Shown: positions 794 through 46,794 of the stretch, piece by piece
Position numbering within the stretch: the first letter of the stretch is position 1
Layout of the letters: each line of letters begins with the position of its first letter
NCBI GenBank assembly: GCA_963809895.1
Contig: CAWELD010000003.1
Location: forward strand, 3,232,001 to 3,296,000
Direction of reading: 5' to 3'
Length of the DNA: 64,000 nucleotides
Source: an uncultured Gemmatimonadales bacterium
GTDB lineage: Bacteria; Gemmatimonadota; Gemmatimonadetes; Longimicrobiales; Gaopeijiaceae
The notes under the pieces: generated by a model
The model's input: the letters and a program-made list of their open reading frames with translations, nothing else
Database searches by the model: none
What the model was told of the DNA's origin: nothing
Program-made: the position numbers and the translations under genes

Positions 794-838
794 GAAGACC
801 CTGGCGGAGCGGGCGGCACTCAGCGTCACCTGCGAGTG
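794..838 (+). repeat. Conserved intergenic motif copy A (CTGGC-N20-TCACCTGCGA), promoter-like
   Basis: Near-identical to 30689-30733 (3 mismatches in 45 bp). Lies ~40 bp upstream of the first cassette G|TT site. Confidence 0.8.
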
Positions 839-1052
839 AGCGGTTGGGACGGGGGCCGGTTCGGAGGCCCTAGAACGTTATCAGCCATTGCCCGGACGAG
901 AGGATCGCGGGAGCGTGAGTGAGGCATGCTGCGCGCCGCGCGCCTCTGGCCGGGTGCGGCCCGGAGGTCGAGGATCTTGCGAGCATGAGTGCCCGGAGCA
1001 AGTGTTGGCGAACGAGGAGGGCCCTCCCGAGCGAGTGAGGGGTAATCAAAGC

Positions 1053-1280
1053 ATGAACTACCGAGACCGAATCACCATCGAACCAGGCAAGCGGAGCGGC
1101 AAGCCGTGTATCCGTGGCATGCGGATCACGGTTTCGGACGTGCTCGACTACCTGGCGTCCGGGATGACGGAGGACGAGATCCTGGCGGAGTTCCCAGATC
1201 TCGAGAAGGACGACATCAAGGCGGCTCTTGCGTTCGCAGCGGACCGGGAGCGTCGGTTGATGTCGGTGCCTCCAGCATGA
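1053..1280 (+). CDS. DUF433 family antitoxin
   Basis: MNYRDRITIEPGKRSGKPCIRGMRITVSDVLDYLASG...DIKAALAFAA is a classic DUF433 sequence. Confidence 0.92.
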   Translation: MNYRDRITIEPGKRSGKPCIRGMRITVSDVLDYLASGMTEDEILAEFPDLEKDDIKAALAFAADRERRLMSVPPA

Positions 1281-1284
1281 TCCT

Positions 1285-1617
1285 GTGAAGCTCCTTTTCG
1301 ATCAGAATCTCGCTCCCCGCTTGGCTCGCGATCTCGCCGACATCTTCCCGGGCTCGGTGCACGTTCGTGGCCTGGGAATGGCACAGGCCTCGGATCGACA
1401 GATCTGGGATCACGCGAGAGAGGAGGGCTTCGTGATCGTGTCGAAGGACAACGACTTCCAGCAAATGAGCTTCGTATTCGGCGCTCCGCCGAAGGTCATC
1501 TGGATCCGCCGCGGGAACTGCAGTGTGGAAGAATCCGCAGGGGTCCTGCGGGAGAACGCAGCTCGGATAGGCGAGTTCGAGATCGATCAAGTGGCTACCT
1601 ACCTTGTCCTGTCCTGA
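1285..1617 (+). CDS. DUF5615 PIN-like toxin (VapC45-like)
   Basis: MKLLFDQNL...D..IW..A....IVSKDNDF...GAPPKVIWIR; directly follows DUF433. Confidence 0.9.
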   Translation: MKLLFDQNLAPRLARDLADIFPGSVHVRGLGMAQASDRQIWDHAREEGFVIVSKDNDFQQMSFVFGAPPKVIWIRRGNCSVEESAGVLRENAARIGEFEIDQVATYLVLS

Positions 1618-1630
1618 CAGACGGCAACGG

Positions 1631-1734
1631 CTGATAACAGGCTGGGTTGCCACTCGCGTCGGCCTGCGGCCGGTGCGGCCCTTCGGGACACCCGCCCCGC
1701 GGGCGGGCGTCGGGAACCGCCGGAACGTTATCTG
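1631..1734 (+). repeat. attC-like recombination site 1
   Basis: R'' CTGATAAC lies 14 bp after the stop codon and R' GTTATCT at 1727. Inner pairing GGTT(G)CC/GGAACC has one extrahelical base. R'' is complementary to the cassette start GTTATCAG at 877. Confidence 0.75.
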
Positions 1735-1790
1735 AAGCTGGCTTCGCAACCCCCACTCACGCGTCGCGACGGGAACTGACTCGGAGGCTC

Positions 1791-1819
1791 TGGCGTAAGT
1801 ATACCAGTATCGGTATACT
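1791..1819 (+). promoter_or_regulatory. Sigma70-like promoter with palindromic operator for the TA operon (probably leaderless mRNA)
   Basis: TGGCGT-N17-TATACT; inverted repeat AGTATACC/GGTATACT (1798-1819); ATG 6 nt after the -10. Confidence 0.7.
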
Positions 1820-1824
1820 CGTTC

Positions 1825-2193
1825 ATGAGTGACGCGACGCCCAAGCCGGTGTTCTGGCTCGGATCGGCCCGATCGGACCTACGCTCGTTCCCGGAGGAGG
1901 TCCGCACGGACGTGGGCTTCGCCCTCTGGGTGGCACAACGGGGTGGACGGCCCGCCCAAGCGAAGACGCTCAAGGGAATCGTCTCCGGTGCGGGCGTGCT
2001 CGAGCTGGTCGAGCGCCACGACGGGGACACCTATCGGGTGGTGTACACAGTACGGTTCGCGGATGCCGTGTACGTACTCCACGCATTCCAGAAGAAGTCG
2101 AAGCGCGGAATCAAGACGCCGAAGCATGAGATCGACCTGATTCGGTCGCGGCTCAAGGCCGCGGAAGAGCACTACGGTGGGAGCGGACGATGA
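1825..2193 (+). CDS. RelE/HigB (Gp49-like) toxin
   Basis: W.GSARSDLRSFP...GDTYRVVYTVRF..AVYVLHAFQKKSK.GIKTP. Confidence 0.9.
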   Translation: MSDATPKPVFWLGSARSDLRSFPEEVRTDVGFALWVAQRGGRPAQAKTLKGIVSGAGVLELVERHDGDTYRVVYTVRFADAVYVLHAFQKKSKRGIKTPKHEIDLIRSRLKAAEEHYGGSGR

Positions 2194-2519
2194 CCAAGGA
2201 CCAGATCGAGGAGAGTTCGGGGAACGTATTCGCGGACCTAGGTCTCGCCGAGGCGGAAGAACTCCATACAAAGGCTCAGCTTGCGCATCGGATCGGCGAG
2301 ATCGTTCGCGGTCGCCACCTCACGCAGGCCGAGGCTGCGGACGTGCTTGGTGCGACGCAGCCGATCGTCTCGAGGCTGATGCGTGGCCAGCTGCACGGAT
2401 TCTCGCTAGAGCGTCTCATGCGGTTCCTCAACGCTCTGGACCGCGACGTTGAGATCGTGGTCCGGCGCCGGCCACGGAGTCGAGATCACGGCGAGACACG
2501 GGTGAAGGTCACCGGCTGA
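2190..2519 (+). CDS. HigA-like XRE/HTH antitoxin
   Basis: SSGNVFADLGL...LTQAEAA..LG.TQP.VS.L..G....FSLERL; ATGA overlap with the toxin. Confidence 0.9.
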   Translation: MTKDQIEESSGNVFADLGLAEAEELHTKAQLAHRIGEIVRGRHLTQAEAADVLGATQPIVSRLMRGQLHGFSLERLMRFLNALDRDVEIVVRRRPRSRDHGETRVKVTG

Positions 2520-2610
2520 CCCGTCGAGTAACGACAGTCACCCGCTTGGAGAGACGCCCGAGTTGGGTTCGTTTCAGCCGCTCTGGTTCTCCGACCAGCG
2601 AAGCCATCAA

Positions 2611-2703
2611 CAGATAACTCCAGGCTCCCGGCTCCGCACCGCTGAACGCGGCGCTCCGTCCCAACTGGCCTCGGCCGTCTCTCCGGTGAGCCTCATGTTG
2701 TCC
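2611..2703 (+). repeat. attC-like recombination site 2
   Basis: R'' CAGATAAC is complementary to the cassette start GTTATCTG (1727). Stem AGGCTC-CCGG / CCGG(T)GAGCCT; R' GTTGTCC at 2697. Confidence 0.75.
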
Positions 2704-2717
2704 GGGAGGGCTGAGCC

Positions 2718-2948
2718 ATGAACGACGAGTCTACAAAGGATGAGGTGGTCGAGGAGTTGAACCGATTGGCCGAAGCCGATCGGCGTCGGGTCCTGGACTA
2801 CGCTCGTTCACTCGGCCGCCGCGTCTCGAAGGGCGTGGCCGGCGACTCACTTCTGTCGTTGGCTGGGTCGTTACCAGAGGCGGAGGCATCGGCCATGGAG
2901 GCGGCCATTGAGGATGGGTGTGAGCGAGTGAACCTCGGTGCCTGCTAG
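2718..2948 (+). CDS. Putative antitoxin (VapB-like)
   Basis: Small ORF with RBS, overlapping a downstream PIN gene. Confidence 0.7.
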   Translation: MNDESTKDEVVEELNRLAEADRRRVLDYARSLGRRVSKGVAGDSLLSLAGSLPEAEASAMEAAIEDGCERVNLGAC

Positions 2949-3324
2949 GGCACTTCTCGATACGAGTGCTGTCGTCGGGCTCCTGCGCGGCGATACGTCT
3001 GCAGTAAAGAAGGTCTGATCTCTGGACGAGGCATTCACGAGCATCGTGGTAATCGGCGACTCCTTTACGGAGCTCGCCTCTCGACGGGTGCAGAAACGAA
3101 CCTGGCGCTGGTTGCCTCGTTTGCGTCGTCGATCACCGTCCTCGCCTGCGACCGCGTGACGGCGGAAGCGTACGCACGTCTGAAGCATGGCCTGCGAGCC
3201 AAGGGGCGTCCGATCCCGGATAACGACCTATGGATCGCGGCCACGGCGGCGCGAGCGTGGTGACCCTCATCTCACGCGACGCGCACTTCGTGGTATCGAG
3301 GAACTCGGCCACGAGTCCGTGTAG
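2938..3324 (+). pseudogene. VapC PIN toxin, multiply frameshifted
   Basis: ALLDTSAVV... and LRAKGRPIPDNDLWIAATA...LISRDAHF lie in different frames. Confidence 0.8.
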
Positions 3325-3471
3325 GCCTCGAGCTTCATAAACGGGACGTTACGCGAAAACCGACACCGACCGGAGAGACGTGGCGTTCAGGAGTCGAACG
3401 CTGCAGCGTAGGGTATGGGGTGAAGGTCGGAACTGGGTGGGCTCGCGCCAACTGGTTGATTTGGAGGACGG

Positions 3472-3700
3472 ATGTCGGAGCGAATCGTCTCGGACCCTGA
3501 GATTATGCTTGGTAAGCCCGTGGTCCGTGGCACTCGGATCACGGTGAGAGCATCGTCGAGCGACTCGGAGCCGGCGAATCGGTTCAGGCGATCGTCGATG
3601 CCCATCTACGCCTCACGCGACAAGACGTCCTCGCTGCGATCGCCTTTGCTGCTGAGGCACCAAGTCGGTGGGTGCATACCGGATTTCCACCGGCGCCGCG
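3472..3700 (+). pseudogene. Second DUF433 antitoxin, frameshifted
   Basis: MSERIVSDPEIMLGKPVVRGTRITV followed by frame breaks. Confidence 0.8.
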
Positions 3701-3920
3701 TGAAGCTCCTCTGCGACGAGGGAGTCGAACGCCATATCGTCGACGCTCTGCGCTCGTCCGCTCACGAGGTCACCTACGTTGCCGAGATCGCTCCAGCATC
3801 CCAGCGGAGGTCCTCCGGCGGGCCGCCGAGCGGGAGGCCATCCTGGTCACCTCTGACAAGGACTTCGGTGAACTCGTCTACCGGCAGGGACGAGCGCACG
3901 CAGGTATTGTCCTGCGGGAC
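3700..3920 (+). pseudogene. Second DUF5615 PIN-like toxin, frameshifted and truncated
   Basis: MKLLCDEGV...HEVTYVAE / EVLRRAAEREAILVTSDKDFGELVYRQG. Confidence 0.8.
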
Positions 3921-4175
3921 TGGGATGGAGTCCGAGCGCTCTTCTACCCGAGCGCCCTTCTTCATAGCGAACTGACCTTGCCGGACAGGAGCCACCAGTC
4001 CGGGACTTGGACGGCTCTCCGGACTCTGATCCCGTGGGGCGCGGCATCAATGCCGTACATCTTCTGCGCCGGGACGGGGCGTGGCGCATCACCGGCCTCA
4101 TCTTCCAGATGGAGAGAGGCACGGCCGGGATTCCAGATCGCTACCTCTGACCTGCGGGTACCTGGACACGGGCCG

Positions 4176-4244
4176 CCGTAACGGATAGGCGAGGCGAGGG
4201 GGAGGAACTCGTTGCGAACTCCGGTTCGCGCGCACACGTTGGCC
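4176..4244 (+). repeat. Possible degenerate attC site
   Basis: CCGTAAC ... GTTGGCC; R'' partly matches GTTACG at 3348; inner pairing is weak. Confidence 0.3.
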
Positions 4245-4335
4245 GGGCTCAGTAATCCCGATCGTCCGTCCGGCTGGACGCCGCAGCCAATGGAGAGAGG
4301 CCATTCGTAGATCGTATCGTTCGATCCTGATCCTG

Positions 4336-5001
4336 GTGATGGGGCTGAGTCCGGCCGTGGTGCTTCCAGCGCGGGCCAATGCTCAGGCCGCAGAGCGGAA
4401 TGCCGCGATCGTAGAGCATTGGGTCAACCAGTCCTTGGCTGGCGACCTTTCCGGAGCGGACACCCTCCTCGCTGCGCACGTCACGTTGCACGCCGTCCCC
4501 GGCACGACCACGAGGACTCGTCGCGCCTTCCTCGATTTCCTCAGCAACGGTGTTGCGGAGGGCGGCAGGCTTCAGGTTAGCCAGATCGAGGTGTTCGGAG
4601 AGGGCGACGAGGTTTGTGTCCTGTATTCGGCTGACGGCCATGACGGTCCGGTGAGCGCGGTCCGGTTCTATCGTGTCGTGGATGAGCGAATTGCCGAAGC
4701 CTGGTGGGGGCCATCGGCTGAAGTACGCTGGTCTTGGGACAACGAGCTCAATGGTGACCTCGATGTCCAAGCGAACCGGCAGGTCCTGGCCCGCTGGTAC
4801 GAGGACGTCTACGCTGAGGGGGACTGGCAGCTGGTTCCTGACCTCGTTGGCCCGACCTTCCTGCGCCATGAGGACCGGGAGTTCTCCAGGGCCCGGAAGA
4901 GTACCGTGACCGTCTCAGCCGCATGTTTGGAAGCTGCTCTGAGGCTCAGGTATGAAGTAGTGGGGACACGACAAGGTCGCCGTCATCGGGAGAGTACCTG
5001 A
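4336..5001 (+). CDS. SnoaL/NTF2-like domain protein, likely frameshifted at the 3' end
   Basis: Repeated N..IV..W / N..VL.RWYEDVY..GD...V.DL pattern. Confidence 0.5.
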   Translation: MMGLSPAVVLPARANAQAAERNAAIVEHWVNQSLAGDLSGADTLLAAHVTLHAVPGTTTRTRRAFLDFLSNGVAEGGRLQVSQIEVFGEGDEVCVLYSADGHDGPVSAVRFYRVVDERIAEAWWGPSAEVRWSWDNELNGDLDVQANRQVLARWYEDVYAEGDWQLVPDLVGPTFLRHEDREFSRARKSTVTVSAACLEAALRLRYEVVGTRQGRRHREST

Positions 5002-5250
5002 TGGGAGGGGGTTCCTTCAGGCCTGGCGCGTTCGTGACGGCCGCCTTGTGGAGAGTTGGTGGGCGCCGGGTCTTGCTGAATGGTGAACCTCGTGCGGGGC
5101 GGCCATCGCTGGCACCGCCTGACCAGGGTTTCAGCCTCACGGCGGAGGCCGGAGGGTCGGCTGGTTGTTCGGCTTGCACCTACAACCGCCGCTGCGCATG
5201 TTGCTCCCGCGCGTTGAACCCCAAGTCTTCAGGCGGCGGAGGACGTCGAC

Positions 5251-5714
5251 TTGAGTGCCGAGAACAAGAAGGATTCGCGCTGGCTCGAGATCCTTGGAGT
5301 GGTCACCGTCATCGTGTCCGTTCTGTTGCTCGCATGGGAAATCCGGCAGAACACGCAGACGGCAACGGCTCAGGCGATGCTCGACCTCAACACGATGGCG
5401 AACGAAGTGCTGAGTGCTGAAGCCCAGAGCGCGCAGTTGGCTGCGGTGCTGGTGAAAGGAGAGGAAGATCTGGGTTCCCTGTCACCGGTGGAGTACCGGC
5501 AGTTTCAATCCCACGTATATGCGTCGATAAATGCAATCAAGGCTGCACACGGCTTCTTCACTCAGGGTATCCTGGACGAAGAAGACTTTTCAGGGTGGAG
5601 GACTATACCTGCCCCTACCTGGGCGGTTCCTCCGTCAATGCGATATAGGAGTCTTTCAAGCCCACATGGGGGACTGAGTTTGTAGCCTTCGTGGAGGAGA
5701 CCTGCGGGCTTTGA
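5251..5714 (+). pseudogene. Hypothetical membrane-anchored protein (E-I-R-Q-N-T family), paralog 1, 3' frameshift
   Basis: WLEILGVVTVIVSVLLLAWEIRQNT. Confidence 0.6.
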
Positions 5715-5874
5715 TCGCGGCGAACTAGGTACCAGCGCCGCCTGACCATGGAGAACCCGCCGGCTGGGGACATCCAGCGGCTGCTGCCGTCCTCCCTCGA
5801 GCCAGAGCTCGCTACGAGTCGAAACCACTCGCTCTGACGCCCCGCTAGGCGGCACAATCCAATGAGATTCCCCC

Positions 5875-6340
5875 ATGACGAAGCGGAACCTGTCCGAATC
5901 GCTGCACCTGCTCGCCAACCTGGGCGTCATCGCCAGCATCGTGTTCCTCGGCGTCGAACTCAGCAGAACAACCAGCTGATGGAGATGGAGGCGCGAGCGA
6001 CCCTCACGGAAAACCTGCAGGACGGCTGGTACCAGCTGTCCAGCGATCCGGGCCTCACGGAGTTGTTCATCAAGGACCGGAGCGGCCAGGAGCTGTCCGA
6101 GGCTGACGAAATGCGTCTCAACGCCTACTGGATGGGGATGCTGCTGCGCCGCGAGTGGCAGCACGAGCATTTTCCCGACGCCGTGACGGCATGGCCGGCC
6201 TGCAACGCCTCTTTTCGACCTACGGCTCCCTGCGCCGGGCATGGGGTGGCACCAACAGCGCCTCGCGTGGGGCGGGCAAGGACAACTTCTCTCCGGAGTT
6301 CGTGCGTTTCATCGAGACAGAGATCCTGCCCGCGTCCTGA
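5875..6340 (+). pseudogene. Same family, paralog 2, frameshifted
   Basis: MTKRNLSESLHLLANLGVIASIVFLGVEL/QNNQLM, split across frames. Confidence 0.6.
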
Positions 6341-6387
6341 GCAGTGGAGACCTTCTTCAGTCAAGACCAGCCGGAGGTGACCGGGCG

Positions 6388-6848
6388 ATGGCAATAGGGA
6401 TGACAGGATGGAAGGAAGTGATAGCAGCTCTCGGAGTCGTCCTCTCACTCGTGTTTGTCGGCTTCGAGGTTCGGCAGAACACGAGGGATCCCAGGCTACG
6501 GTACGCAATGATCTGGCTACGGCATCTCGGGAGTACCTGCTCGCGCAGGCGACAAGCCCTGAGTTGAGCGCCGCCTACGAACTCTGGCTCAGCGGTGGAG
6601 AGATAGCCCGGTTCAAGACCGGATGGTGATGACCTCCACCATGGCCTTGATTCGCAACATCGAGAACGTCTTCCTCCAAGCGGAATTGAGGAGCATCAGA
6701 CTCTGACGTTGTCGGGTCGTTTGAGCCATGAGAGCCCCGATCTTTCAGTCTGAGAAGTTTCGACAGTTCTGGGAATCAGGGACCAGGGGCAGCGTAGACC
6801 CCGGATTCGCGGAGGCCTTTGGTACGGCGAACGGGTATTAGGGCCTGA
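6388..6848 (+). pseudogene. Same family, paralog 3, frameshifted
   Basis: WKEVIAALGVVLSLVFVGFEVRQNT followed by frame breaks. Confidence 0.55.
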
Positions 6849-6860
6849 AAGGGAGACCTG

Positions 6861-7625
6861 GTGGCGAATTCTGCTCACACACATCGACGAGGGCACCCTC
6901 TGCTGGTCGAGGGCATCGTCATTCTTGCCAGTATTCTGGTGGCTTTCTGGTTGGATGGATGGCGTGCAGACCGTGAAATGGATCGCGATCTCACCCAGGA
7001 GTTGGAAAGCGTCTACCGCGAGGTCCAACGGAACCGGGACCTGGTGGTCGCCGAGTTGATCGTCCTCAACCGACTCACGGCGAGCGCGGATGCGCTGTTG
7101 GCTGACCTCAGCGCCAGCCCACGATCATCGACGATGGCGGTCACGGATTCGATCGCCTGGCTCGCAACGTCCTGGTCCGCGACCATCGATCCTTCACTGG
7201 GCGCCGTGCAAGCCATGATCGACTCGGGCCGGCTGGCCCAGGTCCCCAACCCCCGGCTCCGGCAGGGCCTCGCGGGGCTGAGGGATCAGTTCGAGGACGC
7301 CGTCGAAGAGGAGGTGTTGGCCCGCGAGGTATTCAGCAATCAGATATTTCCGCTGACTCGGGACCGCTTGGACTATCAAGCCTTCGGCGCACTCTTGCCG
7401 CAGCTCCTGGGACCAGCGAGTGGCGGCAGGCTGAGTCAGGAGAGCTTGTCCAAGCGGTCGTTTCCCACCCAAGGAACGATCGAGTACCCGAACAGCCCTG
7501 CCATTCGCAATGCCTTGGAGTTGAGGAGGGAATGGAACGTCGCGGCTCAAGATGAGATGGCCCAGCTGAAGATCGTCCTGAATGAACTTCTTACGGCCCT
7601 GGAAGACGAGTTGGCGGATCAATGA
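6861..7625 (+). CDS. Hypothetical N-terminally anchored helical protein (DUF6090-like)
   Basis: LLVEGIVILASILVAFWLDGW; paralogs at 12569, 14186 and 61883. Confidence 0.7.
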   Translation: MANSAHTHRRGHPLLVEGIVILASILVAFWLDGWRADREMDRDLTQELESVYREVQRNRDLVVAELIVLNRLTASADALLADLSASPRSSTMAVTDSIAWLATSWSATIDPSLGAVQAMIDSGRLAQVPNPRLRQGLAGLRDQFEDAVEEEVLAREVFSNQIFPLTRDRLDYQAFGALLPQLLGPASGGRLSQESLSKRSFPTQGTIEYPNSPAIRNALELRREWNVAAQDEMAQLKIVLNELLTALEDELADQ

Positions 7626-7650
7626 TCTTTCCCGTCGCACAGATTTCGGC

Positions 7651-7717
7651 TCTCCAACAAGTTTTCGCGGCTCTGGCGCCGGACGTTGCAGGTGAATGTT
7701 CGAACATGCCGTTGGAA
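7651..7717 (+). repeat. attC-like site
   Basis: TCTCCAAC 26 bp after a stop codon, GTTGGAA at 7711; 67 bp in total; short TTCG/CGAA inner pairing. Confidence 0.5.
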
Positions 7718-7755
7718 AGACATCGGGGTGGGCACTTCGGCTGGGTGGACGTGAC

Positions 7756-8506
7756 ATGAAACCGGAACTGGGCCTCGGACGATGGGCAGGCGGAGCGGCG
7801 ACGGCTGTTGCGCTGGTCATGACCGGCTGTCAGGCCGGAGGCGATGGGCCAAGAGAACCCGAATCGACCGCCCTCGACCTGGTTCTGGAGCCGGTGACAG
7901 TAATCGGTGAGATCGAGGGGCCGGCGGACTACGTGTTTGGAGATGTGCGTGCCGTTGCGGTCGACGATCAGGGCCACGTCTACGTAGGAGCCCGGATCGG
8001 AGCAACGGTTCGGGTCTACTCAGCGCGAGGGGAGTTCATCACCGGCGGAGCTGTCTAGCGACACGCTGATGGTGCCATACTACGCGGGGATGGAGGCGCA
8101 GCGCACGGCGTTCGATCTCATCGGGCAGTCGAACGGCCGCATCGTCGAGGGACTGAGCCACATGCCGTTCGCAGCTGTTCCCACGTGGGACGTATCCGGC
8201 CGAGGAACGGTCCTTAGCACGGACGGAGACAGTGGTGACCTCTTGGAGTCGACCTTTGGAGGCGACACCGTCGGCGTCCTGGCGTTGGCGAGCAGCCCCC
8301 GCCGCCCCATCCCCCCGGCGGAGCGCGCCGACAGCCTGAAGGCCTTGGAGGCCCGCATCGATTCGCTTCCCGTCCCGCTGGACGAGGTCGTGAACCTCGG
8401 GAGGGGTGTCGCTGATCGGCATCTCCCGGAGTTCCTCCCGACGACGGTATCCTTGCGGGTCGCGACAGGTGGCCTGATTTGGGTAGAGCGGTGGCCCCAA
8501 CATTGA
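7756..8506 (+). pseudogene. 6-bladed beta-propeller lipoprotein, internally deleted or broken
   Basis: Signal peptide ending LVMTGC, then IGEIEGPADYVFGDVRAVAVDDQG; C-terminal part is in a separate ORF (8069-8506). Confidence 0.65.
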
Positions 8507-8518
8507 GGCTCCGACGTC

Positions 8519-8642
8519 TTCCAACACGGTGCCGAGAGACTCGCGCGGTAGGTAGGTGGGCTGCATGTGCCTCTTGAACTCATATGCCCCGTACCAGATT
8601 TCGAAAACAGCTTGGTGAAGTGCGGCAAGCGTGCCGTTTCCT
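8519..8642 (+). repeat. Possible attC site closing the 7711 cassette
   Basis: TTCCAAC R'' with extended complementarity to 7711-7726; candidate R' GTT at 8636; TGCCG/CGGCA pairing. Confidence 0.35.
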
Positions 8643-8656
8643 CAGGGAGCTATCCG

Positions 8657-9826
8657 ATGACCGCCCCGAACCAGATCGTGCTGCTGATCGCGCTCGGCTC
8701 CGTGTGCGCGACGCCCGCCATCGCTCAGCAATCCACCGGAGAGAGGGCGAGAGATCTCGGCATTCCGCTCAATGGGACGCCCGGGTCACACAACGCCATT
8801 ACGGATGTGCCCGGCGTTGAGGTCGGCTATTCGACCGTTGTCAAAGGAACGGGCGCCTGGCGAATCGGCGAAGGACCTATTCGGACAGGTGTGACGGTCG
8901 TTTTGCCACGAGGGAAGACGGAGGGCTCCTACAACGTCGGTCAATTCGTGTTCAATGGCGACGGCGAGATGACCGGCGTCCCGTACATCCAGGACTATGG
9001 CCGGGCTGGAGGCCCCATAGGCATTACCAACACCAACAGTGTCGGCGTTGTCAGGGATGCAATCGGGGAGTGGATGTACAGGAGGTTTGCTTCCAACGGT
9101 CCGATGGATTTCTCATTCGGCTTGCCCATCGTCGGCGAGACCTGGGACGGCGGACTCAACGACATCAATGGCCACCACGTCAAGCGGGAACACGTATTCG
9201 AGGCGATCGATGGCGCCGCGGGTGGGCCTATCGCCGAGGGCAATGTAGGTGGGGGGACGGGGATGACCTGCTATTGGTTCAAGTGCGGAACCGGCACGTC
9301 GTCCCGGGTGCTACGGATCGGCACGAGGGACTATACCGTTGGTGTGCTTGTGCAGGCGAACTTCGGCAGACGGGACGATCTCGTCATCGCCGGCGTACCG
9401 GTCGGGAAGGAGATCACCGACTTCGACATGGTGGGGGCACCGGAGCAGGACGGGTCCATCATCATCGTGATCGGGACCGACGCACCTCTGACTTCGTCAC
9501 AGTTGAATCTCGTTGCAAGACGGGCAACGCTAGGGATGGGGCGCACGGGAACAATCGGCGACAGCCGATCCGGCGATATCTTCCTCGCGTTCTCGACGAA
9601 TACCGGGCAATACGATGAGGCGACCGACATCATCTCGGCCGATCGGCTGTCCACAGCAGGACTCAGTCAGGTGTTTCGCGCTACCGTGGAGGCAACAGAA
9701 GAGGCAATCATCAACGCCCTCGTTGCTGCCAAGGACATGGAGGGAATCAACGGGAACAAGGCATTCGCGATTCCACACGACAGGTTGCGAGAAGTAATGA
9801 GGATGTACAACCGACTGACACCATAG
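8657..9826 (+). CDS. dmpA: P1 family (DmpA) L-aminopeptidase/D-esterase with signal peptide
   Basis: RARDLGI...NAITDVPGVEVG...EGNVGGGTGM...QANFG...DGSIIIVIGTDAPL (Gly-Ser autocleavage site)...SGDIFLAFST. Confidence 0.9.
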   Translation: MTAPNQIVLLIALGSVCATPAIAQQSTGERARDLGIPLNGTPGSHNAITDVPGVEVGYSTVVKGTGAWRIGEGPIRTGVTVVLPRGKTEGSYNVGQFVFNGDGEMTGVPYIQDYGRAGGPIGITNTNSVGVVRDAIGEWMYRRFASNGPMDFSFGLPIVGETWDGGLNDINGHHVKREHVFEAIDGAAGGPIAEGNVGGGTGMTCYWFKCGTGTSSRVLRIGTRDYTVGVLVQANFGRRDDLVIAGVPVGKEITDFDMVGAPEQDGSIIIVIGTDAPLTSSQLNLVARRATLGMGRTGTIGDSRSGDIFLAFSTNTGQYDEATDIISADRLSTAGLSQVFRATVEATEEAIINALVAAKDMEGINGNKAFAIPHDRLREVMRMYNRLTP

Positions 9827-9965
9827 GCCGCTGTTCGCCAGGCTATTGCCTCATCTCGGGCCTACTACTGCCCCTGGGGCTCGAGAGGTCGCGAAGGGAA
9901 GTGAGGGCCGCTTCGTAGATCCTAGATGTGGACCCCATAGCACAGCTTCCTGGAGCATCTCTTTG

Positions 9966-10433
9966 ATGCACCGCCCCGTGGACCCGGACTCGCCTCGACA
10001 CAATGATGAACAGACGTTGATCCGACGTGCCCTACGGCTGGGCGCCTGGCCTGTGGTAATCGCCCTGTTCATCACTCCGATTCGCTTCTTCCTCGAATTG
10101 GCAGGCGTCCCGACGGTCTACGTGTTCCTGCTCGGACTGCTCTGGTTGTCGTTGGGGCTCTCAATCTACTGGGGCTTCAGATTGTCCGCCGAACCCCATC
10201 CGTACCGGCTCCTTTGGTTGAGTCTCGCGTTCTTCTCACCCCCTTCCAGGTTTCCGGTGTTCCTGCTCTGGTGGATTACCACCACCTGGGGGCTTGGCAC
10301 CCACTACAACATCTTTGACAGCTGGGACCAAGCGCTCGTCGGGCAGCTCTTCTACGGGTCCCTACTCCAGATCATCCCCGGTGGCTTGCTGGGTTCACTG
10401 ACGCTCGCTATCAGACGGGCAAGAACTGCGTGA
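9966..10433 (+). CDS. Hypothetical membrane protein
   Basis: About four hydrophobic segments. Confidence 0.65.
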   Translation: MHRPVDPDSPRHNDEQTLIRRALRLGAWPVVIALFITPIRFFLELAGVPTVYVFLLGLLWLSLGLSIYWGFRLSAEPHPYRLLWLSLAFFSPPSRFPVFLLWWITTTWGLGTHYNIFDSWDQALVGQLFYGSLLQIIPGGLLGSLTLAIRRARTA

Positions 10434-10500
10434 GGCCGTCCTCATGCGTTACTTGACCAGGTGTATCCTATTGGCAATAGCCGGGCGGGTGCGGCCTCGG

Positions 10501-10575
10501 GTCACTCAGGCTTCCGGCTCCGCGCCGCTGAACGCGCGCTCTGTCCCAATTCGCTACGCGGAAATACGCCTCATG
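10501..10575 (+). repeat. Degenerate (dead) copy of attC site 2
   Basis: 10507-10549 matches 2621-2664 at 40/44 positions and also ends in GCCTCATG, but AAC has become CAC and GTT is lost. Confidence 0.7.
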
Positions 10576-10663
10576 GCGCGAAGTGGGTCGGGTCGCCACT
10601 TTCCCTTCCGTGAGGGTTCTTGACGATGAGGTCAGAAGCAACGGATGGGCAGAGTGGTAGGAC

Positions 10664-11392
10664 ATGACTCGGAATAGGTTTCGCTTTCTATCCCGCGGTA
10701 CGGCCACGATGGCCTTGACTGCGTTCTTGGGGTTGAGTCCTCGCTCGCTTTCCAGTCAGAACGCGGTGAGGGATTCGACCTGGACGGCGTTGATCCTTTA
10801 CAACCGAACTTTGGTGAGTTCGTTTGCCGCTGCGATGCGAGCTGTCCGCAGTGCTGATTCGCTCCTCGCGATCGCCGCTGGGAAAGACGTCCAAAGCCCC
10901 TCTGATTCCGTGGGGATGTGGGTGGCCCGAGTCGTAGAACCGCCATTGACCGACTTTCGCCCCTATAGCCGCTTCGTGAGCGACGACATTCTGAATGCGA
11001 TTGTCGACGACTCGCTCCTTCTCGCCGCCCGGACTCACCTCGTGAGGTCGTCCTCGGACATTGAGGCCAAGAATCGCCTTGTTCTCGATTATCTGAGCTC
11101 GTTCCAAGATTCGGGGATGTCCGCGCGCCTGGGGTGGCAGGGTACCACCCGAGACCCACGAGAACGGACCATCACGCGAGCGCAGATTGCAGAGGACCGG
11201 GAGTTCGTCAGGTTTGTTCGCGATCTCCGCGTGATTCTGTTGGATCTCGCTCGCACCGCAGGGAGTGCGGCGCGGGAAGGGGGGGGCGTTGGCGGCGGCC
11301 TTCGAACGAGCCTTCGGGCACAGACGGCACGGCGGGCGAGGCATTCATGCTCTACTTTGACGAGCGTACCGTCTCGAGGAAGTTCGACGTGA
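10664..11392 (+). CDS. Hypothetical secreted protein; 3' end probably disrupted
   Basis: Signal-like N-terminus; the tail overlaps the next gene fragment. Confidence 0.45.
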   Translation: MTRNRFRFLSRGTATMALTAFLGLSPRSLSSQNAVRDSTWTALILYNRTLVSSFAAAMRAVRSADSLLAIAAGKDVQSPSDSVGMWVARVVEPPLTDFRPYSRFVSDDILNAIVDDSLLLAARTHLVRSSSDIEAKNRLVLDYLSSFQDSGMSARLGWQGTTRDPRERTITRAQIAEDREFVRFVRDLRVILLDLARTAGSAAREGGGVGGGLRTSLRAQTARRARHSCSTLTSVPSRGSST

Positions 11393-11562
11393 ACCTGCGA
11401 GGCAACGTGCTGAAGTGGTGGCGTGATGATGCCGCATTCTCACAGCGCTTTGTGGGTACGATCAGCGAGGACGGCAACGCAATCGTCTGGAAAGGGGAGA
11501 TGTCGCGGGGCGGCTCACCCTGGGAAGACGACTTGGAGCTGACCTACACGAGGGTGCGTTGA
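11347..11562 (+). pseudogene. 3' fragment of a conserved hypothetical beta-rich protein
   Basis: MLYFDERTVSR...FSQRFVGTISEDG...WEDDLELTYTR. Confidence 0.5.
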
Positions 11563-11584
11563 GAGAAAGAGGCAGGCCAGCGGG

Positions 11585-11647
11585 AACGACCAGCTCGAAG
11601 CAGCGATCGAGTTCTACACCGCGACGTTTCCGAACTCCGAAGTACGC
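11585..11647 (+). pseudogene. Tiny remnant of a PhnB/VOC-family gene
   Basis: NDQLEAAIEFYTATFPNSEVR, with no start codon or continuation. Confidence 0.5.
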
Positions 11648-11750
11648 ACCGGCGCCCGCACCTGACGGGTCAGGGCTGGCCCTTGCATGCGCGGGCGCCG
11701 GTGAACCCGGGCGGTCCGTCTGAGAGCGGTTCCCAATGGAGGCAAGCAGG

Positions 11751-12255
11751 ATGCATCCGGCTGACGATCAGGTAGCGAAGGTCTTGCACTGGATCAGCGA
11801 TGTCTTCGCCCGGGCCGGCGCACAGTATCAAGTCGTAGGTGGACTCGCCGCGCGTGCGTATGGGGCGACTCGTCCTCTCGTCGACCTCGACTTCTACGTC
11901 TCGAGCTCGAGACATGCCCCGAGTATTGGTAACTGTGGGCGACTCCTGCGTGTGGGGGCCCGAGCACTTCAGGGACGAAAACTGGGATCTGACCTTCGCC
12001 AAGCTCGAGAAGAACGGTGTGCAGATTGAGGTGGCCGAAGCAGAAGGGGCTCGGTTCTACAGCCCGAGTGCCGGCCGATGGCTAGACCAGAACATCGCAT
12101 TCCATGACTCCGATAGGAGGGTGATTCTCGGAGTGGAGATGGAGGTCATGCCAAAGGATCAGCTCGTCGAGTACAAGAGAGCTTTGAATCGACCGGTGGA
12201 CCGATTGGACCTCAGCGAGATTCTTGGAATGAGGTTGAACGAGAGGCACGAGTAA
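11751..12255 (+). pseudogene. Nucleotidyltransferase-fold protein, frameshifted
   Basis: VVGGLAARAYGATRPLVDLDFYV (GG...DxD motif), continued in another frame. Confidence 0.7.
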
Positions 12256-12568
12256 GGCGGTCGGGGAGGATCCCCGTCCGTGAACTGGGGATTCATGATG
12301 ACAGCACAGGCTTCGGGATCGGGGTCGTCCTTTTCGCATGGGCTCCGACCGCCGCTCTCCGCGCACGTGTCCGAGAGCTGGAAAGCCGACTCGGTAGCTC
12401 GTGACAGGGGTCACCTGGCCGCTCGTGGCGGTCGCCTACCAAGCGATCGCCGGTCAGCCCACGGCTACTTGCAGCAACACAAATTCTGGCATACTACGTT
12501 GAGGCCACGCCGTCTGCCGCATCCGCGGCGGGTCCACGGACAAGCCAGAGAACCTCTACCACGCGCCG

Positions 12569-13319
12569 ATGGCCGCCGAGACCTCCCGCAGGCAGCGTTG
12601 GATCAAGCTCGGCCTCGAGTCCGCTGCCGTCTTGCTGAGCATCCTGACCGCGTTCGCGATCGACGCTGGCTGGGACCACCACACTGCCCGCCAGGATGAG
12701 CAGGCGGCGCTCGCCAGACTGCTCGACGAGTTCGAGGCCAACCAGGAAGAACTGGAGGCAGTCCGAGCGGGCCATCAGATCCTGCACGACAACGGGGTTC
12801 AACTTCTCCGGGTCGCGTACGGCCTCAGTCAGCCAGCGAGGAATCCCCCGAGCAACTTCGCCGTGTGCTCGGAATGTCGATCTACTTCGACCCGAGCATG
12901 GGGGCTCTGAACCGATTCCTTGCGAGCGACGAGACGGGAAACGTGGCCGGCCCCGAGCTTCTCGATCGGCTCGCGGGCTATCCCGCGAAGGTGGACGAGC
13001 TCTGGCAACAAGAACGGATGCTGCGGGAGATGATCGCTAGCTCATCGACCCCTTTGTCGTTCAATCCGCAGACCGACTCGTCCTCCTGCCCCCTGCCACG
13101 TCGTCGGAAGACCTGCAGAGCCTTCGAACTGAGGTGCCCCGTCAGGTAGACACCGAGATGCTCATGTCGCTCCTCGCGCAGCGCGAACTCCGCAACCTCA
13201 TCACGACACGGGTCATCCTCGAAGCACAATCGCTGATGAAATACGAGGTCGTGGCGGCCGAGTTCGACGCGATCTTGACCGAACTCCGCAGGATCGCGGG
13301 GACGGGTGAGCATCCCTAG
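12569..13319 (+). pseudogene. DUF6090-like anchored protein, frameshifted in three pieces
   Basis: LGLESAAVLLSILTAFAIDAGW; ORFs at 12569, 12865 and 13134. Confidence 0.65.
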
Positions 13320-18778: not shown

Positions 18779-18898
18779 CCCTGGCGCAACCGACGGCAAT
18801 CAGCGTAACCTGCGAAGGGAAGATATGAACGGGGGATTGGCCCGTAGGTGGTGGGCGACCCAGCCTCCTGACGACGAAGAGGAGAATGAAGAGATGTC
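18779..18898 (+). repeat. Motif copy B within a 120-bp duplicated leader
   Basis: About 99/120 identical to 19884-20002 by manual alignment. Confidence 0.85.
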
Positions 18899-19883: not shown

Positions 19884-20002
19884 CCCTGGCGCGGCAGGCG
19901 ACGCTCAGCGTAACCTGCGAACGGAAGACGTGAGCGGGGCTCGGCCCGGAGCCGGTGGGCGACCCATCCTCCTGCCGACGAAGAGGGGAATGAAGCGATG
20001 TC
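19884..20002 (+). repeat. Motif copy C within the 120-bp duplicated leader
   Basis: CCCTGGCGC...TCAGCGTAACCTGCGAA...GGTGGGCGACCCA.CCTCCTG.CGACGAAGAGG.GAATGAAG. Confidence 0.85.
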
Positions 20003-30688: not shown

Positions 30689-30733
30689 GAAGACCCTGGC
30701 GGAGCAGGCGGCACTCGGCGTAACCTGCGAGTG
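30689..30733 (+). repeat. Motif copy D
   Basis: GAAGACCCTGGCGGAGCAGGCGGCACTCGGCGTAACCTGCGAGTG. Confidence 0.85.
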
Positions 30734-30837
30734 GCGCCGTTGGATGAGGCTGCGCCGACCAATCGCTTCCGCGGCACCAGCGAGCCCAGAAGCAGAGAGG
30801 CTCGGGGGGACTCGGGCAGGAACACAGGAGCTGAACA

Positions 30838-34843: not shown

Positions 34844-34879
34844 CTGGCGGAGTGGACCGCATCGAGCGTAACCTGCGAG
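34844..34879 (+). repeat. Motif copy E
   Basis: CTGGCGGAG...GAGCGTAACCTGCGAG. Confidence 0.8.
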
Positions 34880-34910
34880 GCGATCCCTCGGTCCGAGCTC
34901 GGGAGGCGAC

Positions 34911-39168: not shown

Positions 39169-39204
39169 CCCTGGCGGTTGGGGTGAGACCGAGGATAACC
39201 TGCG
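39169..39204 (+). repeat. Motif copy F
   Basis: CCCTGGCGG...GGATAACCTGCG. Confidence 0.6.
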
Positions 39205-39480
39205 CCTGGGCCAGAGATTGCGATCAGCGTGAGACGCTGGGCAGCGACTCTCTCTACGGGCGTCCGGATCCGGGACTCTACTACTCGGTGGTACTCAGCC
39301 TCAATGGCCGCTTCGTCGAGGTGCCGGTGATGCCGTAGGATGCACGGAGAGCGAGGGCGATCCAGCCTGACTTCGCCAAGGAGAAGAAGCCGCGGCCCAC
39401 CGGCAAAGCGTAACGCAACCTGAAAGCGATCGGCCCCAACCTCGGTACCATGTTCAGTTCCCTCCAACGGAGACACTGCC

Positions 39481-41215: not shown

Positions 41216-41773
41216 ATGATCCTCCAGGACCAACTCCGCGAGCTCCTTCGGCGCCAGGACGGCTTCTCCGAGCAACTCGGTGACGTCGTTCGGTCGCAAG
41301 GCACGATGGTGGAGCGTCTGGGGTCGGCCGAGACGACGCAGGTGAGCATCCTGAATCGGCTCGATTCTCTCGAGACGACGCAGGTGAGCATCCTGAATCG
41401 GCTCGATTCTCTCGAGACGACGCAGGCGAGCATCCTGAATCGGCTCGACTCTCTCGAGACGACGCAGGCGAGCATCCTGAATCGGCTCGATTCTCTCGAG
41501 ACGACGCAGGCGAGCATCCTGAATCGGCTCGATTCCATGGAGCGGAGACAGGAAGCGGCGTCGGAGGAGTTCGGCCAGCTCGTCCAGTTTCTGGGCCGGA
41601 AGTTCGCGTCGATCGACCGACGCTTCGAGGCAGTCGATGAGCGATTCGTCCGGCTGGAGGTCGGTCTCGAGGGCGTCCGTGACGAGATCCGGATCCTCGC
41701 CGAGGGCATCGGAGGCCTGAACCAGCGCCTGGACCGCTTCATGGAGCGGATGGAGAGACTCGAGGCGAACTGA
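41216..41773 (+). CDS. Coiled-coil protein with a 14-aa tandem repeat
   Basis: ETTQ(V/A)SILNRLDSL repeated 5 times. Confidence 0.75.
   Translation: MILQDQLRELLRRQDGFSEQLGDVVRSQGTMVERLGSAETTQVSILNRLDSLETTQVSILNRLDSLETTQASILNRLDSLETTQASILNRLDSLETTQASILNRLDSMERRQEAASEEFGQLVQFLGRKFASIDRRFEAVDERFVRLEVGLEGVRDEIRILAEGIGGLNQRLDRFMERMERLEAN
41330..41535 (+). repeat. 42-bp in-frame tandem repeat, ~4.9 copies
   Basis: GAGACGACGCAGG(T/C)GAGCATCCTGAATCGGCTCGA(T/C)TCTCTC. Confidence 0.97.
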
Positions 41774-41853
41774 GGGTAGGCTCCGTCGGGGAACCGGAAC
41801 TGCGAGTCCTGACCGGAAGTAGTGTCGTTGGCTTCTCTGGACCTGGAGCGCAC

Positions 41854-43678: not shown

Positions 43679-43724
43679 TGCGCGCCTGACGAGGGACGCG
43701 ACCGCGGAGCCGTACCGGCCACAG

Positions 43725-43764
43725 GACCCTGGCCCTAGAGGCGCTGCCCAGAGTAACCTGTGAG
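43725..43764 (+). repeat. Motif copy G
   Basis: GACCCTGGCC...GAGTAACCTGTGAG. Confidence 0.65.
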
Positions 43765-43848
43765 TCGGATGATCTCAGGCGGGGGCAGCCGAGTGGTGAT
43801 GAGGTTCCGATCCGCGTCGGGACATTCCTCCTTTCGCGAGGGCTGCAT

Positions 43849-44835
43849 ATGCGCAGACGACGGCATGGGCCGCGAGGGCGACTCCGAAACACGGCGCGTC
43901 CAACACCGTTGTCGCAGATGTGCGTTGCCGTGGTCGTCTCCTTGGCTGTGCCAGGGACGGCGACAGGCCAGGCACCGGCCGATTCCGTGACCCTTCTCAA
44001 CTACGTCGAGGAGTACCAAACCGTCTGGAACACCCGCGATCCAGCACGTGTTGCGGCATTCTTCACCGAGGACGCGGATCTCGTCATGGGCAATCAGCCT
44101 CCGGCCGAGGGACGTGACGCGATCGAAGGCTGGTGGCGGGCGTACTTCGAGGTGCAGGAGCAGGGGCGAGGCGGGAGGTTCGATGTAACCTCGCTCAAGC
44201 TCCTCGGCCCTACCGCCGCACTCGTTGATATCACGAGCACGACGGGCGCTGCGGATACCGCGCACGAAGCACTCGTAACCAGGAAGGCCCGCGGGACGTG
44301 GCTGTTGCGCAAGCGAGGCGACGGTTGGCTGATCGCGGCGATGCGTGGCCTGCCGAGCGAGGGAGACGAGGTCGAATTGAATCCCTCGCAGGAAGATGCC
44401 GAAGAACTGAGGCCGCAGATACGCGCGTTCGTTGGCGCGTACGAAGACGCCTTCAATCGTCACGATGCCGACGCGTTGAGCGCCTTCTACGGGAGTGACG
44501 CCGACATCGTCGTGCGAGAGTTGCCTGCCGTTCGGGGGATCGAAGCTATCAGGGCCTGGTGGCGCACCTACTTCAGTCAGCCGCGACCGTACTACGCCTT
44601 GATGGTGATCCGAGAGATCAAGATGATCACGGACGATGTCGCGCTGCTGAATGTGATCGGAACGGGCGCGCCCTATGAGCACACCACCGAGGTCGAGCCA
44701 GTCCGGACCGCGCGTGCGACGTGGGTCGTGGCACGTACGGACGGTGAGTGGCGAATCGTCGCTTTGCGCGTGTTGCCCAGCGAGCCTGATCGCGTGATTC
44801 GTGCGTCGGGTGGCGGGGGCCAGAGCGAGTTCTGA
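43849..44835 (+). CDS. Tandem SnoaL/DUF4440 (SgcJ/EcaC-like) secreted protein; start uncertain
   Basis: Two copies of W/FN..D...A.F...DAD...G..AI..WWR.YF. Confidence 0.8.
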   Translation: MRRRRHGPRGRLRNTARPTPLSQMCVAVVVSLAVPGTATGQAPADSVTLLNYVEEYQTVWNTRDPARVAAFFTEDADLVMGNQPPAEGRDAIEGWWRAYFEVQEQGRGGRFDVTSLKLLGPTAALVDITSTTGAADTAHEALVTRKARGTWLLRKRGDGWLIAAMRGLPSEGDEVELNPSQEDAEELRPQIRAFVGAYEDAFNRHDADALSAFYGSDADIVVRELPAVRGIEAIRAWWRTYFSQPRPYYALMVIREIKMITDDVALLNVIGTGAPYEHTTEVEPVRTARATWVVARTDGEWRIVALRVLPSEPDRVIRASGGGGQSEF

Positions 44836-44862
44836 GTCGGAACCCTGGTCAGCAGGTGACCC

Positions 44863-45153
44863 ATGAACACCGAACGGACAGTCCCCGACGCAGAAGAAGA
44901 GCGGCGAGGTGACGACGAGGCCGCTCGCTTCCCTTTGTGGAGGACGTTGACCGAGCCTGCGGTCGCTGCGGGGGTCGCCAGCGTCCTGTCGATGCTCTAT
45001 GCACCCTCGCTGTTTGTCGCCGCAGTACCGGCAGCGATCTTCGCTGCTGCACTCAGGCTTCGTCGGGAGTACGCCGGCAGCGACCGTCGGAGCCTGGAGT
45101 CGGGAGACGCGCGAGACGCGTTGCTCGAGGAGCACCCCGATCCCTTGAGCTAG
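44863..45153 (+). CDS. Small hypothetical membrane protein
   Basis: Two hydrophobic segments; RBS. Confidence 0.55.
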   Translation: MNTERTVPDAEEERRGDDEAARFPLWRTLTEPAVAAGVASVLSMLYAPSLFVAAVPAAIFAAALRLRREYAGSDRRSLESGDARDALLEEHPDPLS

Positions 45154-45173
45154 CGTAGTGGCGCCTGGATCCG

Positions 45174-46640
45174 CTATTCCCGCACGCGCGTACCGCACCA
45201 GGCGCTCAGCGCGTCGGCCAACCCCGACTGGCTTCCCTCGCCCACCCACGCCACGTATCCGTCCGGGCGGACAAGCACCGCCGTGGGAGCCTCCACCGTC
45301 CCGAGCACGGGGAGCTCCCACGGGCCCTCGCAGGTGGCCTCGACCGTACGAACCCGATCGGCCCATGGGGAGAGGTCGAAGCCGCTCGCGCCGCCGAGAT
45401 CGAGCAGCACCGGCCGGGCCTCGTGCAGAAGCGTGAAGACCCGCACGGTGCCGTCGTCGGTGCGGAGGTCGAGGTCGGGCATGCGACGGCCCAGCAGCGG
45501 GTGCCCCTCGCCGAGATCGTAGTGGAGGTCGAGACCGGACATCATCCCGGCGAGGTGCTTTCGGGGCTCCTCCATGCCGAGCAGGTCAGCCACGATCTCC
45601 CGCAGGGCCTCGGTGCGGTCGTCGGTGCGGAGCAGCGCGACCTGGGCCATCGTGTCCCTGAGCACACGCGCAGCGATCGGGTGCCGCTCGGCACGGTAGG
45701 TATCGAGCAGACTCTCCGGCGATGTGCCCTTCACGACCTGGGCCAGCTTCCAGCCCAGGTTGACGGCATCCTGCACGCCGATGTTGAGACCCTGCCCGCC
45801 CACCGGGTAGTGCACGTGCGCGGCGTCGCCGGCCAACAATACTCGCCCCTCGCGGTAGCTCGCGGCCTGTCGGGCCATATCGGTGAACCGCGAAATCCAG
45901 GTGGGATTGTGGACGCCGTAATCCGTTCCGAACGCGGCGACGAGCTCCTCACTCAGGTCGCGTAGCGTGGGATCGCCGGTCCGGTCGCGCCGCTGTTCGG
46001 TGACCATGACCCCCACCGGACCCCCCTCCTCCGTCCGGCTCCACGCGTAGATGCCCTGCGGCTTGCGATGGAGGCCCCACTCCGGCTCCTCGGTCACCTG
46101 GACCTCGGCCAGCAGGTTGCTGATCGTGGCATCCCATCCCGGAAACTCGATGCCGGCGGCCTTCCGGATCAGGCTCCGTCCGCCGTCGCATCCCACGAGA
46201 TAATCCCCCCGCAGTGAGGTGCCGTCGGACACCTCCACATCGACGCCGGTATCGTCCTGCGCGAACCCCGTCACCTCGCGTCCGCGATAGATCGTCACCC
46301 GCAACTCGTCGACCCACCCGGCGAGGATGCGCTCGATGTGCATCTGCGGCAGCGCGAGCCCGTAGTGGTGGCGGGTGGGAAAGTCGCTGATGTCCAGAGG
46401 GATCCAGGCGAATCCCGCCACCTGTGCCGTGCTTCCCTCGGAGAGAAAGCGATCGGCGATCCCCCGCTGATCCAGGACCTCGATGGTACGTGCGTGCAGA
46501 CCGCCTGCCCGTCGGCCGGGGAGGTCCTGATCGGGGCGTCGCTCGACGACGGCGACGTCGATGCCCGCCAACGCCAGCTCACCCGCCAGCATCAATCCGG
46601 TTGGTCCTCCCCCAGCAATCACCACCGCGTGCTCGGTCAT
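45174..46640 (-). CDS. FAD-dependent monooxygenase (Rox/PheA-like)
   Basis: VIAGGGPTG, LVGCDGGRS, LAGDAAHVHYPVGGQGLN, LVRPDGYVAW. Confidence 0.9.
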   Translation of the reverse strand: MTEHAVVIAGGGPTGLMLAGELALAGIDVAVVERRPDQDLPGRRAGGLHARTIEVLDQRGIADRFLSEGSTAQVAGFAWIPLDISDFPTRHHYGLALPQMHIERILAGWVDELRVTIYRGREVTGFAQDDTGVDVEVSDGTSLRGDYLVGCDGGRSLIRKAAGIEFPGWDATISNLLAEVQVTEEPEWGLHRKPQGIYAWSRTEEGGPVGVMVTEQRRDRTGDPTLRDLSEELVAAFGTDYGVHNPTWISRFTDMARQAASYREGRVLLAGDAAHVHYPVGGQGLNIGVQDAVNLGWKLAQVVKGTSPESLLDTYRAERHPIAARVLRDTMAQVALLRTDDRTEALREIVADLLGMEEPRKHLAGMMSGLDLHYDLGEGHPLLGRRMPDLDLRTDDGTVRVFTLLHEARPVLLDLGGASGFDLSPWADRVRTVEATCEGPWELPVLGTVEAPTAVLVRPDGYVAWVGEGSQSGLADALSAWCGTRVRE

Positions 46641-46756
46641 GAAATACCGCCTCCCTTCGTGCAGAATCCGGCGCTTCTTCGGACCATCAAACCTGCATTT
46701 CGACCCCGGGCTTGCTGCAAGTCCCCCGGGGCCCGATACATTAGAACCGAGGGGAA

Positions 46757-46794
46757 GCCTGGCAGAGCACGCGTGACGCTGCGTCACCTGCGAG
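46757..46794 (+). repeat. Motif copy H
   Basis: GCCTGGCA...GCGTCACCTGCGAG. Confidence 0.7.

Follow-up and report, generated by a model that had tools for sequence, protein, structure and literature searches.

The window analyzed here, a 64,000-nucleotide (nt) stretch of contig C3 (positions 3232001-3296000) from the genome of an uncultured Gemmatimonadales bacterium (hereafter G000), carries eight copies of a short motif, CTGGC-N20-T(A/C)ACCT. Based on sequence comparisons, we consider it probable that this motif is the loop interior of an attC-like recombination site and acts as a modest sigma70-family promoter directed into the next gene cassette, and that six of the copies in the window are relics of such sites in which the promoter has likely been kept by selection. 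We define the predicted promoter as a -35 box T(G/A)GCnn, a spacer of 17-18 nt, and a -10 box TAnnnT, directed across the crossover point of the site. This reading is carried by the homology of the motif to intact sites, the relics' lack of arms and of a hairpin, the conservation of both boxes across relatives at a fixed spacing and a fixed distance from the crossover, and their match to the promoter grammar of the host.

The motif and a long attC-like site

A pattern search identified exactly eight matches in the window, all on the plus strand (copies A to H, with CTGGC at 801, 18781, 19886, 30696, 34844, 39171, 43729, and 46759), as the initial annotation had reported; 100 shuffles of the window gave a mean of 0.05 matches and a maximum of 1. 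Two further statements of that annotation also held: copies A and D are identical at 42 of 45 bp, and all eight copies are intergenic and 5' of a plus-strand gene, the latter based on a heuristic gene caller with approximate gene starts.

Scans of the G000 genome (5.33 Mb, ~69% GC) placed the motif inside a repeat of ~165 nt upstream of the window (C3:3213549, 3214018, 3216679, and 3218647) and in one solitary intact site on the minus strand (C3:1892838). As in canonical attC/IntI systems, the intact sites have complementary end boxes (R''/R'), paired L boxes (L''/L'), and a G|TT crossover, with a predicted bottom-strand hairpin, co-oriented cassettes, and an adjacent tyrosine recombinase. The bottom-strand fold of one intact site puts the motif in its terminal part and has a z score of -2.86, and a second site scored -1.74; the inverse core sits ~85 nt upstream of CTGGC. 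The motif is thus predicted to be the loop interior of an attC-like site of ~165 nt in an integron-like array. An extrahelical base in the L box is a feature of attC sites; here, by contrast, the L box pairs without a bulge, and in the one site folded in detail GGCTTCCG is fully paired with CGGAAGCC.

The array starts ~19 kb upstream of the window and is preceded by a tyrosine recombinase gene (C3:3211291-3212394) that shares its strand with the cassettes, another difference from the canonical arrangement. The recombinase matches TIGR02249 only at positions 1-171 and 219-314, below the cut-off; positions 172-218 are missing, and with them the IntI-specific insertion, and it is not classed as an IntI. 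A similar recombinase lies upstream of homologous arrays in two related genomes, G104 and G067, and the G067 copy has the same split match. Excision and integration of cassettes by this recombinase at the long sites is putative, and we call the system integron-like. A true IntI is encoded elsewhere in the genome (G000:C10:600939-601880), where it has its own short-attC cassettes, apart from the long-site array.

Other G000 sites with the same arms and different interiors keep TAnnCT 45-48 nt before the crossover (TACCCT, TACTCT, and TTCGCA-17-TATGCT). Promoter-bearing long sites also occur far from the main array, before other accessory genes, both in G000 (C3:1892838, minus strand) and in relatives (L291 and L296 in G104, L292 in G220, and L293 in G150). 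Three similar cassettes without an open reading frame (ORF) lie at G000:C3:3213155, 3213630, and 3218255, and all but the first directly follow a promoter-bearing site.

We trained a position weight matrix (PWM) on intact-site interiors only and ran it over the whole genome, as the initial annotation had proposed. Copies B, C, D, E, G, and H all fell within the top 13 matches, and the scan added a ninth copy at window-equivalent 67587; copy F, in contrast, scored below 13 bits. The eight copies therefore do not form a single set: the matrix recovers these six and leaves out F. All copies were restricted to the array region plus the solitary intact site. Outside this genome, the exact motif was found in 1 of 150 family genomes and in three stretches of the genome_contigs collection, with none in metagenome_contigs; a laxer 14-base pattern had at least 120 matches in viral_contigs. 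These outside matches are treated as chance because none of the loci, exact or lax, matched a hidden Markov model of the site at E 0.5. The exact form of the motif is essentially genome-specific. Rfam at its gathering score gave no matches in the window.

Homologous sites in related genomes

A BLAST search of 314 family genomes yielded 107 candidate sites, drawn from 16 loci plus 40 regions. After 18 were dropped for a missing inner stem or truncation, 89 sites from 25 genomes and 13 genera were kept. T(G/A)GCnn-N17/18-TAnnnT ends 44-48 nt before G|TT in 38 of the 89 (9 genomes, 5 of the 13 genera), compared with a mean of 0.16 and a maximum of 2 in 500 shuffles; the undropped set gave 43 of 107. 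Among 64 patterns of the form XYnnnZ at that position, TAnnnT ranked first (42 occurrences vs. 3.7 expected), and when sites were picked by the -35 box alone, 35 of 39 had TAnnnT 17-18 nt further on. The 38 motif-bearing sites include 12 different -10 hexamers, with a spacer of 17 nt in 16 sites and 18 nt in 22. Identity across genomes was near random both in the spacer (0.33) and downstream (0.31). When the sites were classed by the 5' stem, a criterion independent of the motif, both boxes were present in 33 of 38 sites of one class vs. 5 of 51 of the other. In the 47 sites that lack TAnnnT at 42-49 nt, no antisense -10 stood at a fixed position.

Six sites of the motif-less class, at loci L157, L197, and L203 (in G126, G035, and G225, respectively), have boxes 35-37 nt before the crossover, of the form T(G/A)GC(G/A)n-N17-TACCT(G/A) or TAATCG; these may represent a possible second promoter register without T-7.

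Partly decayed sites were also found among the relatives. Distal to their arrays, genomes G133 and G220 each have one copy with decayed arms; G067 has one solo copy plus two sites without the 3' arm, and sites that lack the 5' arm but keep the promoter occur in G104, G107, G133, and G067. This support for long-term survival of the promoter is modest, and the clear series is in G000. A strict promoter-plus-arm pattern matched 5 of 156 family genomes and none of 144 genomes from two further families of the order; because G000 itself was missed as well, it is no measure of range. Among 80 distant metagenome recombinase loci, a crude filter gave 10 hairpin candidates, with no consistent promoter.

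Promoter class

In G000, with the array masked, promoters sampled from tRNA leaders and upstream regions follow TTGA/TTGC-17/18-TAnnnT. Of the -35 starts other than TTG upstream of genes, TGGC is the strongest (63 vs. 19.8 expected), and TAGC is also in excess (16 vs. 4.6 expected), both at a spacing of 17-18 nt and with a weaker signal than TTGA. TGGC-type promoters elsewhere in the genome precede functionally mixed genes. The sigma70 arrangement of the -10 box, with T-12, A-11, and T-7 fixed and the middle free, is present in six of the eight window copies, all but A and H, and the 38 sites of the relatives have their -35 box 17-18 nt upstream and of a type that the organism uses. The motif is probably an ordinary, modest sigma70-family promoter in an unusual place; the genome encodes three group 1/2 sigma factors. 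An E. coli-consensus promoter scan gave no sites at 18-36 kb of the window, that consensus being too strict for a T(G/A)GC -35.

Other promoter classes and a structural role were considered and rejected. An extracytoplasmic function (ECF) promoter with GTAACC as its -35 box would call for a conserved -10 box 16-17 nt downstream, and the copies have none. Pairing of the boxes varies between copies, which argues against a structural role. The sigma54 consensus has GG at -24 and GC at -12; GG is missing in 12 of the 38 sites and GC is present in only 13.

The boxes might instead bind the recombinase, a host factor, or a regulator acting on the site, and merely look like a promoter. The consistent T(G/A)GC of the -35 box, the tie between box position and crossover (44-48 nt), and the sites with GC at the sigma54 -12 position would all fit such a role. 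However, T-A-n-n-n-T with a 17/18 spacing is the genome's own promoter grammar, the boxes are missing from over half of the sites, and they persist where the recombination site is gone; the frequent lack of GG speaks against sigma54, and no consistent dyad was found in the spacer. We regard a protein-binding role of this kind as very unlikely and prefer the promoter.

These results bear on several readings in the initial annotation. A portable promoter, TGGCGG-N18-TAACCT, is supported as a prediction, its carrier being the loop of the long attC-like site. The suggestion that GCGTAAC resembles an inverse core fails in that TAAC occurs at that place in only 1 of the 38 homologous motif-bearing sites, and a dedicated regulon site does not fit a motif whose exact form is confined to one genome, whose flanks are unconserved across genomes, and whose promoter class precedes mixed genes. 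The same annotation had named as a contrary outcome a plain housekeeping promoter with no link to accessory genes: the motif does follow the housekeeping grammar, but its link to cassettes is real.

Relic copies in the distal array

Copies B, C, D, E, G, and H and the ninth copy are, judged by their likeness to intact sites, relics that have lost their arms. Copy B (18781..18836, plus strand; -35 TGGCGC, -10 TAACCT at 18806-18811) begins only 22 nt past the previous stop codon and has therefore lost its 5' arm. The previous stop is 32 nt upstream of copy C (19886..19950, plus strand; -10 TAACCT at 19911-19916), which has a decayed L' remnant; 49 nt upstream of copy E (34844..34895, plus strand; -10 TAACCT at 34869-34874); and 50 nt upstream of copy G (43722..43790, plus strand; -35 TGGCCC, -10 TAACCT at 43754-43759). 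The ninth copy (G000:C3:3299587; TGGCGC-N18-TAAGCT) lies 17 nt past a stop codon and 55 nt before the next gene. These five thus start 17-50 nt past the previous stop, compared with an arm of ~85 nt in the intact site. Copy D (30689..30749, plus strand; -10 TAACCT at 30721-30726) is nearest to the intact interior (E 1.7e-8). Copy H (46752..46797, plus strand) has TCACCT at 46784-46789, without A-11, and the alpha/beta-hydrolase gene behind it is split over two frames. Copy F (39171..39204, plus strand) consists of TGGCGG-N18-TAACCT between divergent genes, with no other likeness to the site, and probably represents a plain promoter of this class.

No hairpin signal was detected in B to H (folding z scores from -0.9 to +0.7). 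With the ninth copy there are seven relics; all of them keep the spacing of the boxes and all but one keep TAnnCT, whereas the spacers diverge. As a control for circularity, we tiled the whole site with 24 PWMs and ran them over the distal 57 kb, all set to the same false-positive rate of 0.1 per 57 kb. Matches numbered 4, 6, 5, and 4 for the four windows that cover the -10 box; none of the 12 from the 5' part matched on the plus strand, and the four 3'-arm windows matched 0, 0, 1, and 0 times. In the older array, only the part of the site that covers the -10 box survives.

Along the ~150 kb downstream of the recombinase (G000:C3:3212000-3370000), genes, as called by the heuristic gene caller, are mostly co-oriented and GC content at third codon positions (GC3) rises from 0.74 to 0.89, the genome mean being 0.88. 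We infer that this climb is an age gradient, and the region is likely a graveyard of cassettes that greatly exceeds the intact array in size.

A further 70 nt, a leader with a ribosome-binding site, is common to copies B and C (86% identity; window 18832-18901 and 19936-20005), which precede different lipoprotein-like genes; therefore, the decayed site and leader were duplicated together. This leader, like copy F with its lack of site likeness, would also suit a promoter-leader module that spread by another route to positions before accessory genes and was captured into site loops besides. Set against such a module are the decayed likeness to the site, which in B, C, D, and G reaches as far as the G-run or L' box, the confinement of copies to the array region and the solitary intact site, and the existence of intermediates that lack one arm. 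We find this origin improbable, on a par with the protein-binding role, and continue to read the copies as decayed sites.

Several observations weigh against a promoter that is part of the site and retained by selection. The motif must be dispensable for the site, because 51 of the 89 homologous sites lack it at that place, and the relatives are kin, chosen by BLAST likeness to one site. Because no motif-bearing site has a -35 box starting with TTG (0 of 38), the promoter could be a weak one or depend on an additional factor. That the genes at 18-47 kb are former cassettes is itself an interpretation; only for the gene after E do homologs, similar at the family level, stand immediately after intact sites. 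Arm-less copies are few in the relatives (one each in G133, G220, and G067), with none above threshold in the 80 kb beyond the G104 array. A-11 is missing from copies A and H, although it is invariant in the relatives. Finally, arms can persist without the loop: the proximal part has two orphan 5' arms of the long-site family in the window on the plus strand (2621..2690, with loop and 3' arm gone, and 10507..10550), and G220 has one.

The scarcity of arm-less copies in relatives, the missing A-11, and the orphan arms would be expected if the promoter were real in intact sites and the relics were neutral leftovers, their survival due to chance deletion and to ascertainment in the initial annotation. 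We consider this account unlikely, though less so than the two above, because scans of all site parts at an equal threshold recover only the -10 region distally and because all the relics keep the box spacing, and all but one TAnnCT, despite diverged spacers. Retention by selection remains our preferred explanation of the relic series.

Two further features lie in this part of the window. Six 42-nt tandem repeats (41253-41588) fall in a small ORF (41216-41773) with a coiled-coil-like product, and a flavin adenine dinucleotide (FAD) monooxygenase gene (45174-46640, minus strand; FAD_binding_3 and Rng_hyd_C) is divergent from copy H, with a homolog (67% identical) near the G133 array.

Copy A and the proximal array

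An IS110-family insertion sequence (IS) element occupies the first 779 nt of the window on the minus strand and starts upstream of it (PF01548 at window 3-680). A long attC-like site is interrupted by it in the inner 5' stem, 21 nt before the CTGGC of copy A, and is split into a 5' half at C3:3231270-3231322 and a 3' half from window 780. The 3' half (780..883, plus strand) comprises the loop interior, the L' box, and G|TT at 877, and it aligns to intact sites with an nhmmer E value of 2e-21. Within it, copy A (801..836, plus strand; predicted -35 TGGCGG at 802-807 and -10 TCACCT at 826-831) has its boxes 45 nt before the crossover; without A-11, this promoter is likely weak or dead. The initial annotation had placed copy A before the first cassette, where Pc and attI would be expected. 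However, the array begins well upstream of the window, and copy A, with many cassettes between it and the recombinase ~20 kb away, does not occupy the single-site position of Pc/attI; because it is the 3' half of an IS-split long site, it is not Pc/attI.

The cassette after copy A is a DUF433/DUF5615 (PIN-like) gene pair, identified with Pfam (1053..1617, plus strand). Next comes a short attC-like site that lacks the motif and belongs to a different sequence family (1632..1733, plus strand; TGATAAC ... GTTATCT). A toxin-antitoxin-like cassette occurs twice together with its flank, the duplicates lying ~6.5 kb apart (window 1790-2690 and C3:3227328-3228230), and this cassette has its own promoter-like box, TGGCGT-N17-TATACT. 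Many genes at 2900-13300 are frame-split, through either decay or assembly indels.

Relation to known integron promoters

Gemmatimonadota are among the integron-bearing phyla (PMC8618304). The nearest report is the promoter at an attC junction in Vibrio DAT722, which bridges one junction and drives the next cassette (Michael and Labbate 2010, PMC2945992); in that study, the -35 box is present in several attC sites and the -10 box lies in cassette 21, unique in the array. Both that promoter and the one predicted here are of sigma70 type, associated with attC, and directed at the next cassette. In contrast to the DAT722 account, both boxes here lie wholly in the loop, 44-48 nt before the crossover, and they occur in most sites of a subfamily, in five genera, and outlast the site. 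Gene-less cassettes bearing promoters are described in Vibrionaceae and Treponema (bioRxiv 10.1101/2023.11.21.568050 = PMC11014356), and promoters in the 5' untranslated region (5'UTR) are carried by cassettes such as cmlA, qac, and qnrVC (PMC8876359). These are likewise internal and express cassettes far from Pc; however, as far as the available descriptions go, they sit in cassette bodies or leaders and are not a standing part of the recombination site. The Pout promoter of group IIC-attC introns also lies at attC and expresses the following cassette (PMC3001079), but in that account it is supplied by an inserted intron, whereas here the site itself would supply it. Our literature search, with most subscription papers outside its scope, found no complete promoter as a standing part of an attC loop and no survival of a promoter past decay of its site.

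A model for cassette expression and fixation

From the position of the boxes, RNA polymerase would start ~38 nt before G|TT, and the transcript would contain the 3' arm only, and so neither the 5' arm nor a complete hairpin. For the predicted leaders (~87 nt), folding energies are -25 to -31 kcal/mol, and for full-site RNAs of ~208 nt they are -78 to -91 kcal/mol, values for molecules of different length. Each cassette would then be driven by the site of its upstream neighbor, wherever it stands in the array. New cassettes would enter near the recombinase and push older ones away; deletions would then strip the older ones of their arms and leave them as fixed genes with the promoter in place, the only part that selection would retain. 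More speculatively, the promoter may be dispensable before the DUF433/DUF5615 pair (copy A) and the split hydrolase gene (copy H).

In its fullest form, which we advance tentatively and with rather less than even confidence, every long site may bring its own promoter, without dependence on rank behind Pc, and the array may act as a conveyor 150 kb long, along which mobile cassettes become fixed genes, each with a fossil promoter from its former site. If true, this would invert the textbook logic of integrons by making expression independent of rank behind Pc. The expression of distant cassettes in long arrays and the passage of cassettes into permanent genes are both open questions in integron biology. 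A complete promoter within the site would explain the former without Pc. The arm-less relics would be a natural footprint of selection on the promoter, with exact positions for testing, and a promoter that outlasts the arms would keep captured genes on once they are immobile.

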